Part shown: positions 1,472 through 53,500 of the stretch, in pieces | Numbering within the stretch: the first letter of the stretch is position 1 | Layout of the letters: each line of letters opens with the position of its first letter | DNA from: Rhizaria sp. SCN 62-66 | Lineage: Eukaryota | Length of the DNA: 63,283 nucleotides | Assembly (NCBI GenBank): GCA_001724265.1 | Contig: MEDY01000003.1 | Coordinates: 124,001 to 187,283, forward strand | Direction of reading: 5' to 3' | Made by a program: the position numbers and the translations under genes | The notes under the pieces: model-generated | Database searches by the model: none | The model's input: the letters and a program-made list of their open reading frames with translations, nothing else | What the model was told of the DNA's origin: nothing

Positions 1472-3585
1472 ATGTCGGGCCCCAGTCCCGACCAATGTCG
1501 CTTCGTCGAAGCGGCCTTTGAGGGTGGTACGTTCCATGTTTATCTTCTACCTTATACCCATGCAGCAACTGTATCCGCTCTCATATTGCCCTTTATAAGC
1601 CTGCTCACTTTACTCTTACTTTCCCCTGCGCTCTGTTGTACAAACAACAGACCTCAAGACGCTGCAGATGCTGATGCCTGTCGTGACGATTAACGGCATC
1701 GACTCCAACTCTGATACCGCACTTATCGCCGCCGCCATTGCGCGTCGCGCCGACATTGTCCGTTACTTGGTCGACAACCGCGCGTCGGTCAACTACCGCA
1801 ACAAGTTCGGCCACACCGCTTTGCTGTGGGCCACGTCGGCACAGGACAAGCCCATCGTGTCGTACCTGCTGCACGTCGGCGCCAACCCCAACGTCTTCGA
1901 CGAGGACAAGATTACGCCGCTGCACCTCGCCGTGCGCGCGGGCGACACGGACCTCGTCAAGGAGCTCCTCGCGGCCGGCGCGAACCCTGACCCGCAGGAC
2001 AGTTACGGGTCCACGCCGCTCGTCACGGCGGCCTCGTCCAAGGCCGTCGGGTGCGCGCGCGCGCTCATCGCCGCCAAGGCCGACCTGGGGCTTGCGAACA
2101 ACGAGGGTGCGGACCCGCTGCTGCTCGCCGTGTGGTTCGGGTCCATCGAGACGGCGAAGCTACTGCTCGAGTCTGGCGCCAACCCCGACAGCCAGAACGC
2201 GCCGCGCAACGACACGCCGCTGCTCGTTGCCGTGTATAAGAACCGGCCCGACCACGCCGAACTGCTCGCGTCCTACGGCGCGCGCGTCGACGTGACCAAC
2301 GCGCGCGGTGTCAATTCCGTTACCGCGGCGTCGCCCGAGTTCCGCGCCGCGATGCAGGCCGGTCATCAGGCGTGGAAGCGTAAGTGCCGTGCCGCCGACG
2401 CCAACCTGCGGCCTGCGGACGGCGACGTCGACCTGGCCGGAGGCAGCAACAGCAGCAGCAACGGCGGCGGTGGCGCGGGAGGCGCCCTGCCGCGGTCGTC
2501 GCCGGAGCCAGAGGGGTCGCCCGTCAGCGGAGTCAGTCCCGGCGGCGCGGGCGGCAAGAAGGGCGATGACGTCGAGGCGTACATGGAGGAGGAGTTCGCC
2601 AAGATCGTCGGCATGGACGGCGTCAAGGACCAGCTGCGCGCCTTCTACAAGAAGGTCAAGCTGGACAAGATCCGCGAGGGCGTGGGCAAGAAGGCCTCAG
2701 GCGAGAAGAATCGGCTGTTCCACATGATCTTCATGGGCCCGCCCGGCACGGGCAAGACCACGATGGCCAACCTCGTCGCGCGCGTCATGCTCAAGCTGGG
2801 GCTGCTCAAGACCGAAAAAGTCGTCGTGGTTAACAACGCGCTCGACCTCGTCGCCGGATACGTCGGCCAGACCCCCGGCAAGGTCGACGCAAAGGTCGAG
2901 GAGGCCAAGGGTACGTTTTATTACCGAGAGATGTATATCTCGTCATGATAGCGTCAAATATCAGTTCAATTCATACTGTCTTGAATGTATTTGTTTCTCA
3001 TTTTTTAATCTTGCACTGTTTATTTTCATGATGAATTGCTAACTCTCCGGTTTTGTAATGTTTGGCTATTCAGGCGGTGTCCTGTTCATCGACGAGGCGT
3101 ACTCGGTGGTCAAGAAGGAGGGCAACAACGATTCGTTTGGCCGTGAAGCCATCGACACGATCATGAAGCACATGGACCCCCCGTCGTGCGTCTTCATCCT
3201 CGCCGGGTACGAGAAGCAGATGAACGAGTTCCTCGACGTCAACGAGGGCCTGTCGCGCCGTATTCCATACCGCTACCACTTCGAAGCCTACTCTGTGGAG
3301 CAGCTCAAGGAGATCCTCGTCGTCTCATGCAAGCACCTGGACGAGGACCTGGAGCCCGGCGCCGCGGACGCGCTGCTGTCGATCCTGGCGACCGAGCTCA
3401 CGGTCACGCAGCGCGAGACCCAGAATGCGGGCCTCATTTCCAACTGGGTGGCGTTCGCGCAGAACGAGCGCGATGACCGGCTCGACATCGAGGTGGCGCG
3501 CAAGAACCCCGACCTGGCGTCGCTGCTCACGCTCGCGGACTTCGTGAAGGCCGTGCCCGCGCTTAAGCAGATGGCCGCCAAGTGA
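1472..3585 (+). CDS. Ankyrin-repeat + AAA+ ATPase of the CbbX/CfxQ/SpoVK-like family
   Basis: Exons 1472-1526, 1651-2910, 3074-3585 (GTACG..AG introns, both phase 1). About 6 ankyrin repeats (AAFEGDLKTLQML, TPLHLAVRAGD, TPLLVAVYKN), Walker A GPPGTGKT, DLVAGYVGQT, Walker B VLFIDEAY, ILAGY, NEGLSRR. Ends TGA. Confidence 0.88.
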
Positions 3586-4217
3586 AAGATGTGAACAGTA
3601 GAGGCAAAAAATGAACAAATTTGAGAGACCTACGGAGTGACAACTTGAGGTCGACTGAGGGCCATGAGATACTTCAAATAAAAAACGATTGATTTAAAGC
3701 TAGGAATGCGACAACAAAACCTATTTCAAGTAAATAGTGTACTGCGTAGAAGTAATATATTGTCTGTATTATCTAATAAAACTAGACCACAGCAGTAGTA
3801 GCAAAGCAGCAGCAGGCGCGCGCAGACAGCAAACAATCAGTATTTGTTACGAAGAGAGAGCGATCGAGATCTCACCTGTTTACGTTTGCTGTCGTGCCGT
3901 CCCACCATGCTTTTATCACCAACATCAGAAGCAGCAGCAACACGCGTCAGTAAGAGTGGACCACGCGAGGTCACTCTCTTGGCGCGTGCTGTTGTTGCTT
4001 CAAACACTCGACACCATGTCATCACCACGCCACAGCCTTTTTCAGCCCATCACACACACACAAGGATCTCTCTAAAAGAATAGAATAGTAACTTCAACGC
4101 AAGGCAACATATACACACACGCTCAATCAAACACAGCAGCGGTATCAACAGAACATCTAAAGGTGTCGTTGTCGTTGCTGCATCAAGAGAGCGTGCGATT
4201 TATGACACGCGGCGCAC

Positions 4218-50598: not shown

Positions 50599-53500
50599 TT
50601 ACGCCGACGGGCCCGGGGGTTGCTGTTGCTGTTGCTGTTGCTGCTGCTGCATCTGTGCCTGCTGCTGAGCCTGCGCTTGTTGTTGCTGCTGCTGCTGTTG
50701 CTGTTGCTGCGAGCTTGCCGACGAGTACACGATCTGCATGTTGGGCATCGGCGCCTTGACGCTGACGCCGTAGAAGAACGCGTTGCCGGTGCCCGTGAGC
50801 GGCTGCGCAATGACCTGGTAGCCGATGTTCTCCGTGTACACCTGCAGGTAGCCGTAGCCGGCCGGCGGCGCGGGCAGCTTCGACGACGGCGAGAGCGGTG
50901 GCGGCGCGGGGGGCGACGCGGCCGCGGGCGCGGGCGCAGCGGCCGCGGCGGGCGCGGCGGCGGTGGCGCTGGCGGGCGCGGAGCCAGTGGTGTTGTAGCT
51001 GCCGCTGCTGGTGCTGGAGTTGTTCGGGTAGCTCGCGCTCGAGTCCAGCTGTTGCTGCTGCTGCATTTGCGCGAGCTGCTGCGCCTGCGCTTGTGCCTGC
51101 TGCTGCTGCAGCTGAGCCTGAGCCTGGGCCTGGGCTTGCGCCTGCGCCTGCGCCTGCGCCTGAGCAGCAGCCTGGGCCTGCGCCTGAGCCTGCGCCTGCG
51201 CGGCCGCAGCGGCCTGAGCCTGGGCTTGGGCCTGGGCAGCGGCGGCCTGCGCTTGCGCCTGGGCCTGAGCCTGCGCCTGCGCTTGGGCCTGTGCTTGCGC
51301 CTGAGCGGCAGCAGCAGCTTGGGCCTGCGCCTGCGCCTGCGCTTGGGCCTGCGCCTGCGCCTGCGCCGCGGCGGCAGCAGCAGTCGCCGCGGCGGCCGCG
51401 GCGGCCGCACGCTTGTTGATGCTGTCCTGCGCGCGGCGGTGCAGGTGCGCGATCTGCGGCGGCATGTACATCTGCTGCACGTGCTCGGGCGGCAGCCCCA
51501 GCTGCACGCGGTGCGCGTGCGACACGGCAGCCGGCTGCGACGGGTCCAGGTGCGAGAGAATCGCGCGCACGCTGTCGTCCGTCGTCGGCAGTGGGGGCGG
51601 CGGCGCGCCGCTCGCCGTCGCCGCCGCGGCCTGTGCGTGCGCCTGCTGCATCACAGTCGCGAACGGCATCACGCTCGCACGGCCCAACTCGCGCGCGCGC
51701 GCGATATTCTGCGCCGAGCGGTCGACGAGCCCCAGCAGCTGCAGCAGCTGTGGCAGCGGCGCCGAGTCGGGCGGCAGTACAGCCATGCCCGCGCCCGCGG
51801 CCGCGAAGCCCGGGGCGCGTTGCGCCGCGGGGTACGGCACGGTCGGCGGCGCGGGCGGCGCGGGCGGCGAGGGCGTCTGGCCGCCCGACGGGCTCGCGCT
51901 GGGCCCGGTCGCGGAGCCCGAGGCGGGCAGCGGCAGCACCACGTCGGTCTCCTTGGCGTTGGCGCCACTGGCGCCCTCGGACGCGGTCTCGCCCTCAGTG
52001 CGCGAGCGCTTGACGCGGGGGCCGCCCTCCTCGCCCTCCGCGGTCGCGGCGGCGTCGCCGCTGGACGTGGCCGCGGCGGCGTCAGAACTGGAGCTGGCGC
52101 TGGCGCTGGCGCTCGTGGAAAGGGTCCCCTCGGCGGCGGTCGCACTGCTGCTGCTGCTGGAACTGCTGTCGGCATCGGCGCCGCCGAGCTCACGGCGCTT
52201 GCGGTCGCTCGCGGTCGTGGCGTAGCGCTTGCCGCGGCGGTCGTCGAAGCCCTCACCGTCGCCGTCGGCAGCGCCGCCCTTAACGGCCGCGCCGCGCCGG
52301 TCGCCGTTGCTCGCGGCGGCCGCAGCGGCCGCGGCGGACGCGGCCGCGGCCGCGGCGTCGGCGGCGGTGAGCGCGGGCAGGAAGGGGTAGCTGGACGCGA
52401 GACACAGCGGCAGCGAGGGGTAGAAGAGCATCGCCACCTGCTGGTTCGGCGGAGGCGGCACAAGCCCGAGGGGCGCGGGTGGCACTGGCGCACCCGTGAG
52501 CGATGAATTAATCACGGCGTTGGCCATGTCCGTCTTCATCTGCTCGCGCTGCGTGAGCGTGACGTAGCGCAGCAGACACTGGCGCGCCGTCTTGAGCCGG
52601 CCCTTGGCCACCGGCTGCACGGCCAGCGCCTCGGACACCAGCGGGTAGTTGGAGCCAAAGCGCAGCAGCAGTTGCAGCAGCAGCGTGTCTTCGTCCGACC
52701 GCCAGATCGAGTCCGTCTGGAACATGGTGTCGGGCGACATCGCCGGCAGCCCCTCTGGCGCGGCACTGATGCCCGTGGCCTCGAACCCGGGCGTGGGGCG
52801 GATCGTGTTGATCAGCAGTGGCGGATGCGCGGCCTCGCGCGGGATGCCGCGCGACCACTCGTGCGGGTACGGCGCCAGGAACGACTGCGTCAGCGGCTCG
52901 GCGGGCGTCCACAGGCCGCGCACCGAGGGCACGGGGGCCGAGTCGCGCCACGCGGGCGGCAGCGCGGCCAGCGTCGACGCCGGCAGCAGCGCCTGCGCGA
53001 GCGAAGACGACGATGCGAGCACGGAGCGCACCGCCGCGGGCGTCAGCGCGTGGCCCGCGATCTGCGTCGACACATTCGCCAGCGCGGCCGCGGTGCTCGT
53101 GTCGCAGTCGAGAACGTCGCCGTCGCCGTCGCAGTCGCCGTCGTTGCCGTCGGGGTTGGCGCCGCGCTTGTCGCCGCTGCTGTCGGTGTCGTCGTCGTCG
53201 TCGTCAGCGCCAGCAGGACTCGAGCCGGAGCCATCGTCCTCGGGGTTATTACTGTTGCTGCCCTTGCCCTTGTCGCTCAGGAGCTCGCCGTTCTTAGCGA
53301 TGGCGTCCGCCGCGGCCTCAAACGCGCTGGCGCCCTCGGCGGCCTCGGCGTTGGCGTAGAGCTGCTCGAGGGACGCCAGATCCATGCCCGTGGGCGGCGT
53401 CTCGGGCACCACGGGGAGACGCCAGCGCGGGGCCGTGGGCGGCTGGAACAGCAGAGACTGATAGAGCTGCACGCGCATCACCGTCAGCACACGCACGCGC

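Follow-up and report, generated by a model that had tools for sequence, protein, structure and literature searches.

UAG probably means glutamate while UAA and UGA still end genes in a rhizarian genome

UAA and UAG nearly always shift meaning jointly. Among the codes in which UAG alone has become a sense codon, PMC11687900 lists leucine (exLh and the TARA phyllopharyngeans), glutamine (Iotanema, Hartmannula, Trochilia and Protocruzia) and serine (Scotinosphaera). Glutamate has been published as the meaning of UAG only where UAA is recoded as well: Oligohymenophorea sp. PL0344 reads UAG as glutamate and UAA as lysine (PMC10553269), Blastocrithidia reads UAR (UAA and UAG) as glutamate and UGA as tryptophan while UAA has a dual role (PMC12153298), and some ciliates read UAR as glutamate (PMC5304391). 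Here we analyse a stretch of 63,283 nucleotides (hereafter the window; G000:C3:124001-187283) of the 34.9 Mb assembly of Rhizaria sp. SCN 62-66, which comprises 714 contigs, together with a wider sample of the same genome. We propose, from sequence comparison and with a probability of roughly 0.8, that glutamate is the settled meaning of UAG in this organism, with UAA and UGA ending its genes.

The nearest described counterpart is exLh of the Sainouroidea (PMC5304391), like our organism a rhizarian in which UAG alone appears reassigned and UAA and UGA are stops. However, exLh reads UAG as leucine and carries the change L69A in the eukaryotic release factor eRF1, whereas here glutamate is favoured and eRF1 keeps L69 but differs at T32 and T58. 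For exLh the cognate tRNA was a prediction and most of 71 orthologues contain at least one UAG, while here the tRNA gene is seen and 31 of 186 gene models carry a TAG. The exLh code was not encountered in this genome: TAG does not stand at leucine columns, the tRNA is not of the leucine type and L69A is absent. Guttulinopsis is described as probably lacking the exLh change, and one Rosculus gene ends in UAG (PMC5304391).

The other codes with UAG alone as sense resemble the present one in this respect but concern other amino acids and unrelated lineages (PMC11687900); the leucine ciliates among them likewise possess one or two CUA tRNA genes. PL0344 shares with our organism the probable meaning glutamate and CUA tRNAs that are most similar to tRNA-Glu (PMC10553269). 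It differs in that UAA is sense and UGA the only stop, with ten CUA tRNA genes and enriched tandem stops, whereas our genome ends its genes most often with UAA, yielded a single CUA gene and shows no enrichment of tandem stops. Blastocrithidia and the UAR ciliates likewise read UAG as glutamate but have recoded UAA too, while here both UAA and UGA behave as plain stops.

The literature searched, with most subscription journals and supplements outside it, yielded neither UAG as glutamate with UAA as stop nor another recoded rhizarian nucleus. If true, our reading would supply the combination still lacking and make this the second rhizarian lineage with a changed code, and it is plausible that such a code represents an intermediate toward those of PL0344 and Blastocrithidia. 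Since the tRNA and the eRF1 changes occur in one assembly and relatives seemingly carry only some of them, the order of events becomes testable, namely whether tRNA or release factor changed first and whether the path led through an ambiguous intermediate or codon capture. In practical terms, annotation with the standard code would truncate about one in six genes here, including eRF1.

UAG at gene ends and inside genes

An initial annotation of the window had listed 16 genes and noted that none ends with TAG. All 16 stop triplets are indeed TGA or TAA at the positions and strands of Table 1, and an independent gene finder, for which TAA, TGA and TAG were equally likely a priori as end or sense codon, reproduces all of them; an additional, uncertain 17th gene also ends with TAA or TGA. 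The probability of such a run had been taken as evidence for reassignment. The direction of this argument was right, but the statistic is too weak to carry the claim alone. TAG accounts for 0.20 of the stop triplets in the 3' flanks of this genome and for 0.17 in its introns; at a share of 0.20 the window alone gives P = 0.028 for 0/16 and P = 0.044 for 0/14, and at a share of 0.10 the values rise to 0.19 and 0.23. Reassignment itself is nevertheless borne out by a wider genome sample, a tRNA with CUA anticodon, an in-frame TAG in the eRF1 gene and the agreement of independent runs. The annotation had named no amino acid, while the present evidence points to glutamate.

The wider sample of about 770 kb was made up of the window together with twelve blocks of 50 kb each and 30 loci of kinases. 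Gene ends were counted on 187 models of at least 100 residues, 154 of them with a 3' end: 82 end with TAA, 67 with TGA and 5 with TAG. Five or fewer TAG ends among 154 have a probability of 9e-10 at a TAG share of 0.20 and of 0.0014 at 0.10. Furthermore, three of the five read on in frame, with 232+, 975 and 1171 codons open, the last being the window frame 39511-45120, which the gene finder had cut at the internal TAG 43027. The remaining two comprise one with a TAA 25 codons on and one doubtful model with an internal TGA. A further locus set of 41 ends gave 21 TAA, 19 TGA and 1 TAG, the latter directly followed by TGA.

Similar results were obtained without gene models: after 30 coding-like codons, coding continues past 19 of 43 TAG, 0 of 76 TAA and 0 of 75 TGA triplets. 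UAA is still a stop, as the initial annotation had held, and together UAA and UGA account for 149 of the 154 model ends, while in the test without models 0 of 151 continue as coding. A dual stop/sense code does not fit, as TAG is not the usual 3' terminator, though it may close a gene on rare occasions. To this comes the evidence from conserved C-termini. Of the 154 ends, 131 were scanned, each with at least 35 residues in the last exon, within a single locus and free of internal stops. Among these, 20 are anchored by a Pfam domain that finishes at most 25 residues before the stop, and these end 13 times with TAA, 7 times with TGA and never with TAG, in line with the check on conserved genes that the initial annotation had put forward; a Pfam scan of the three TAG-ending models in that set gave no match. 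Four ends in the window are homology-anchored (Arf1, Tudor-SN, URO-D and ATG27), and the Arf1 stop lies 8 residues past GLDWL, which is the modal length (64/118 homologues). A second proposed check, on tandem stops, gave a negative answer: in 149 3' flanks further stops are not enriched downstream of the first (in-frame/out-of-frame: TAA 79/77.5, TGA 125/117.5, TAG 56/48.5).

Inside the 187 models, 45 TAG were found next to 6 TAA and 6 TGA. The TAGs are scattered over the full length of the genes, the closest to an end being 20 codons away, and their overall usage is low: 47 in 201,688 codons, within 31 of 186 models, compared to 7645 GAA/GAG codons.

The cognate tRNA and the release factor

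One tRNA gene with a CUA anticodon was found by pattern search (G000:C84:76008-76080, minus strand). It sits between two intron-bearing genes and has a run of T behind it. Among 37 other tRNAs compared, its closest match is tRNA-Glu(CTC) with 47 of 73 positions identical, while Glu(TTC) and His reach 40, Leu 35-36 and Gln(CTG) 33. With both Glu tRNAs it has the first five acceptor pairs in common, and with Glu(CTC) also the T stem. In addition, the UCCCACG acceptor, the GUCU D stem, U1-A72 and the variable loop of 4 nt correspond to the Glu row of a metazoan table (PMC9023262), and the Escherichia coli Glu determinants U11-A24, U13-G22, A46 and the missing position 47 (PMC9976931) are kept. 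ARAGORN labels this tRNA Pyl, a label that presumably stems from the anticodon alone. A looser pattern for CUA and UUA anticodons returned the same gene plus two other hits and no UUA-anticodon tRNA; of the two, one is not a tRNA and the other is a short repeat. Since Rfam scoring covered 63 of 506 candidates, intron-bearing CUA copies could be missed. The window itself gave no hit in a tRNA/Rfam family search.

The sole eRF1 gene found (G000:C63) contains an in-frame TAG at model codon 111 (L001:1594-1596, minus strand); two further matches of the eRF1 search, on C34, we take to be pelota. In an alignment of 117 homologues, from which three fused entries were excluded, this column holds E 108 times, D 8 times and V once, and 29 metagenome loci show E 26 times and Q 3 times. 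The organism, which is uncultured, is present in metagenome runs from bioreactors, wastewater and activated sludge. The TAG is kept without differences in eRF1 contigs of run X5 (another study), spliced across the intron neighbouring the TAG, and of the polyA run X7. Because these contigs keep the TAG, both assembly error and a hidden intron are excluded at this site. Retention of TAG in mRNA concerns this one site, and contigs drop rare variants; run X3 possibly belongs to the same campaign as the source and was excluded from the independent support. The contig of a relative in run X4 has GAG at the same site, and thus the TAG is not conserved. Relatives (P0005, P0123 and P0138) show identities of 84% in eRF1, 60% in Tudor-SN and 95% in Arf1, while a metagenome scan with eRF1 recovered one identical contig and no close relatives.

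The N-domain of eRF1 carries the changes T32S, G57S, T58K, L126M and K130Q (human numbering, inferred from motifs), whereas NIKS, YxCxxxF and L69 are kept. Position 32 is T in all 117 homologues, position 57 is G in 117 and position 58 is T in 116, the other T58K being found in the 84%-identical relative, which retains T32. T32 is described to bond the G of UAG (PMC5304391), and T32A is lethal in yeast (PMC4381064). In Iotanema spirale, where UAG is glutamine, T32 is also changed, to glycine (T32G; PMC5304391), while here it is serine. For T58K a literature search found no paper. The change also occurs in six AT-rich metagenome eRF1 loci, five of which have an in-frame TAA or TAG, in part at glutamine positions such as that of GGQ, and are probably from ciliates.

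As a side observation, the metagenome eRF1 loci L184, L195-L199, L182 and L183 contain in-frame TAA or TAG, some at glutamine positions, and the first six of them (L184, L195-L199) read KATNIKD. These loci too probably belong to ciliates. Furthermore, the release factor's own gene depends on read-through of UAG in our organism, which makes a feedback possible.

The following scenario could be envisioned. A tRNA-Glu(CUC) gene would have been duplicated, with a change of C36 to A giving the CUA anticodon, and the glutamyl-tRNA synthetase (GluRS) might still charge this tRNA via acceptor stem and core. Since UAA is not a codon that the anticodon CUA is able to read (as argued in PMC5304391 and PMC11687900), UAA would stay a stop. 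The eRF1 changes might weaken the recognition of G at the third position, and TAA or TGA would take the place of terminal TAGs. Where constraint is weak, new TAGs might then arise out of several neighbouring codons, and in conserved columns they would persist mostly at positions that accept an acidic residue.

The amino acid and competing readings

TAG occurs at conserved positions of intact genes, namely eRF1, the APE motif of a NEK-like kinase, UBE2J, SUV3 and four other kinases. The NEK-like kinase (G000:C182; L225:882-4500) is complete with its motifs intact, and TAG stands at the invariant Glu of APE. Its Pfam score is 61.2 bits with E compared to 56.1-58.0 with seven other residues; Nek7 has E in this column, as do 21 of 22 paralogues, one being unparsed. 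Right after APE this kinase has an insert that is rich in Gln and roughly 140 residues long, and its second TAG lies in a stretch with many Gln residues. The UBE2J column, for which TAG was read as Gln in the search, holds D 100, E 17, S 12, N 9, T 6, H 2, Q 2, C 1 and K 0 times (n = 150). At the SUV3 site human has D and a second structure S, and at a CaMK-like site 28 paralogues show E 9, A 7, D 6, K 2, H 2, Q 1 and G 1. Summed Pfam scores over eight exonic sites are 522.1 for E, 521.9 for K, 520.3 for Q, 518.7 for S, 513.7 for Y, 511.9 for L and 508.7 for W, and on these sums Leu, Tyr and Trp are excluded.

Several points weigh against glutamate as the settled meaning. The same sums do not split E, K and Q. 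About ten TAGs in conserved domains were found, of which two are strongly diagnostic, and one of these, the APE site, was found by looking specifically for Glu motifs (41 hits versus 49 in the control, which is chance level; 16 were read and one is a kinase). As invariant Gln or Lys motifs were not searched in the same way, this site carries an ascertainment bias; the 2 hits of a Walker-B pattern (control 8) include no helicase or ATPase. Two kinase TAG sites lie in a column in which K is commonest (K 4/21, E 1, Q 1), and the sites in UCH, DUF445 and PLA2G12 do not favour E either. The anticodon base C36, on which GluRS relies strongly in E. coli (PMC9976931), is lost in the CUA tRNA. UAG would represent about 0.6% of the Glu codons, and three TAG model ends are ambiguous (the one with TAA 25 codons on, the doubtful model and the one with the immediate TGA). 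Finally, TAG neighbourhoods are Gln-rich (9.8% Q versus 3.8% around GAG). For 46 mostly low-complexity TAGs the surroundings are fitted by 0.42 CAG, 0.54 TCG and 0.03 GAG, while region-matched GAG controls give a GAG share of 0.14-0.99 (5-95%). However, these flanking-residue models single out no residue, and the test is weak because ordinary rare codons (ATA, TTA, AGA and AGG) reach synonymous shares of just 0.05-0.18. The flanks may reflect recent entry from neighbouring codons in unconstrained sequence rather than glutamine.

One might go further and speculate, although we rather doubt it, that the reassignment is at an early stage. A single Glu-derived CUA tRNA would face a partly altered eRF1, and UAG would be gone from gene ends without being an equilibrated synonym for glutamate yet. 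Close relatives do differ, with GAG at the eRF1 site and T58K without T32S. If this view holds, the UAG inside the eRF1 gene would tie release-factor output to read-through in a feedback loop.

Among the rivals of settled glutamate, an ambiguous intermediate survives best, yet we give it a small chance. A glutamate tRNA(CUA) would compete with a partly terminating eRF1, and UAG would be leaky, retained chiefly in genes of low expression and still terminating a few genes. The single CUA tRNA gene faces eight copies of tRNA-Glu(CTC), and TAG density drops with the GC content at third codon positions (GC3; 4.23, 1.59 and 0.42 per 10,000 codons from the lowest to the highest third). No internal stop was found in ABC (20), AAA (22) or EF-hand (48) matches, the absence of TAG from the latter being what such an intermediate could predict. 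C follows 19 of 47 internal TAGs versus a background of 26%, a value confounded by Gln runs, while a purine follows 118 of 149 terminal TAA/TGA. The position-32 change is conservative with NIKS, YxCxxxF and L69 retained, and the three ambiguous TAG ends would also find a place here. All this is set against the fact that the sole eRF1 gene found and the APE Glu of the kinase require read-through. In addition, some frames hold three or four TAGs, TAG is absent from the 20 domain-anchored ends, and internal TAGs occur along the entire gene length.

That UAG stands for glutamine, as in Iotanema, or for a mixture of Glu, Gln and Lys, its tRNA being charged by another synthetase, is in our view very unlikely. 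The tRNA body is Glu-like and unlike the Gln and Lys tRNAs of this genome, and an acidic residue is what the APE site, the eRF1 column, the GAG of the relative and the UBE2J column agree on. The Gln-rich flanks with their CAG share, Pfam sums in which Q and K trail E by no more than 2 bits, and the charging of amber suppressors by bacterial glutaminyl-tRNA synthetase via U35 (PMC9976931) are in favour of glutamine. Yet the flanks fall outside the range of true Gln sites: their E-Q score is 0.9, compared to -205 to -81 at Gln sites and 70 to 128 at Glu sites.

The standard code with low TAG usage is largely refuted already, and we regard it as scarcely tenable. It would explain internal TAGs as assembly errors, nonsense alleles or intron acceptors, and 0/16 in the window would be expected 19% of the time if TAG made up 10% of the stops. 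It is also favoured by the 66-69% TAG that random nonsense change would yield under this codon usage, from which the 45 TAGs among 57 internal stops depart with P = 0.02-0.06 only, and 19 of 26 TAGs read inside family matches had to be dropped as intron acceptors, intronic or off-frame, including two Glu-looking kinase sites. Two of 19 model introns shorter than 60 nt terminate on an in-frame TAG, and introns seen spliced in reads measure 134, 169 and 292 nt. In contrast, contigs from different studies and years share the eRF1 TAG, with splicing seen in one, alignments at conserved sites show no extra residues, and the cognate tRNA is present. Nine of the 12 internal TAA/TGA lie within the first 100 codons of their models, where starts are probably mis-set; with these dropped post hoc, 45 of 48 internal stops are TAG (P ~1e-5).

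Least credible of all are leucine, although exLh belongs to the same supergroup, and pyrrolysine, despite the ARAGORN label: Leu lies 10 bits under Glu in the eight-site sum and the tRNA lacks a long variable arm while eRF1 keeps L69, and the tRNA has U1-A72, whereas tRNA-Pyl has G1-C72 (PMC9976931).

The window genes and the host

The window genes, among them Arf1, URO-D, ALG10, Tudor-SN and the SNF2 helicase, are intron-bearing and eukaryotic (Table 1).

Table 1. Gene ends and in-frame TAG codons of the window (window positions)
Feature	Position	Strand	Remark
Ankyrin + AAA ATPase gene, TGA end	3583..3585	+	gene spans 1472-3585; gene finder agrees
Arf1, TAA end	4218..4220	-	C-terminus at modal homologous position; rhizarian-type insertion in gene
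Proline di-methyltransferase (PF05891) gene, TGA end	6110..6112	-	gene finder agrees
Type IA topoisomerase gene, TGA end	12895..12897	+	gene finder agrees
URO-D gene, TAA end	13321..13323	-	Pfam domain stops 9 residues before
ALG10-family gene, TGA end	18133..18135	+	gene finder agrees
2085-codon model, no Pfam match, 3 in-frame TAG	18377..24926	-	TAA end 18377-18379
In-frame TAG, 2085-codon model	20580..20582	-	4344 nt into exon, 910 nt before exon end
In-frame TAG, 2085-codon model	22776..22778	-	
In-frame TAG, 2085-codon model	23181..23183	-	within Asp/Glu run DDDED-TAG-DGDG
Hsp33-like gene, TGA end	27879..27881	+	gene finder agrees
ATG27/M6P-receptor-like gene, TAA end	29871..29873	+	homology-anchored end
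Gene with weak Voldacs match, TAA end	30100..30102	-	gene finder agrees
Gene with weak CHD5-like match, TGA end	32763..32765	+	gene finder agrees
Nop16-like gene, TGA end	33298..33300	-	gene finder agrees
Tudor-SN, TAA end	39198..39200	+	relative at 60% identity ends at most 2 residues away
Low-complexity single frame, ~1870 codons, 4 in-frame TAG	39511..45120	-	TAA end 39511-39513
In-frame TAG, ~1870-codon frame	43018..43020	-	
In-frame TAG, ~1870-codon frame	43027..43029	-	adjoins Gln run
In-frame TAG, ~1870-codon frame	43054..43056	-	adjoins Gln run
In-frame TAG, ~1870-codon frame	43213..43215	-	
17th, uncertain gene (45660 on), absent from the initial annotation	TAA 46548..46550 unspliced, or TGA 46385-46387 spliced	+	
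Coiled-coil gene, TGA end	50259..50261	+	gene finder agrees
HSA + SNF2 (SWR1-like) gene, TAA end	50599..50601	-	gene finder agrees

Some of these genes have further features worth noting. Ankyrin repeats and an AAA ATPase are fused in one gene (1472-3585, plus strand), the C-terminal part of the type IA topoisomerase (7783-12897, plus strand) is very long and of low complexity, and a match to the Hsp33 family with long inserts (25231-27881, plus strand; E 2e-18) occurs here in a eukaryote. Elsewhere in the genome, L126:1693-9999 holds four tandem paralogues similar to group XII secretory phospholipase A2, with long acidic N-terminal repeats and a TAG in two of them, and L087:2017-3024 (plus strand) encodes a DUF445-like membrane protein with an in-frame TAG.

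Judging from Arf1, the host is a rhizarian and probably belongs to the Cercozoa. The insertion in this protein is common to Paulinella, Guttulinopsis and Bolivina, and a quick tree of this one gene (120 rows) recovers a clade with all four named rhizarians (SH-aLRT, the Shimodaira-Hasegawa-like approximate likelihood ratio test, 97) and a subclade with Paulinella and Guttulinopsis (support 93). This single-gene tree does not resolve a placement with Guttulinopsis at the level of the Sainouroidea; membership in that group is a guess from the long, divergent-looking small-subunit (SSU) rRNA gene and the habitat. About 11 loci for dynein heavy chains, together with 51 matches to kinesin and 5 genes for myosin, point to a flagellate. 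A pattern for the polyubiquitin junction, a rhizarian marker, gave no match, and the sole match below 1e-25 among 28 candidates is a divergent ubiquitin with a three-residue tail (L201:1438-1734). The SSU rRNA gene measures 4445 nt with several long inserts (G000:C706:4459-8903; L086:1501-5945), and the first insert contains an intact open reading frame of about 175 codons that matches a His-Cys box homing endonuclease (PF05551, E 6e-14).

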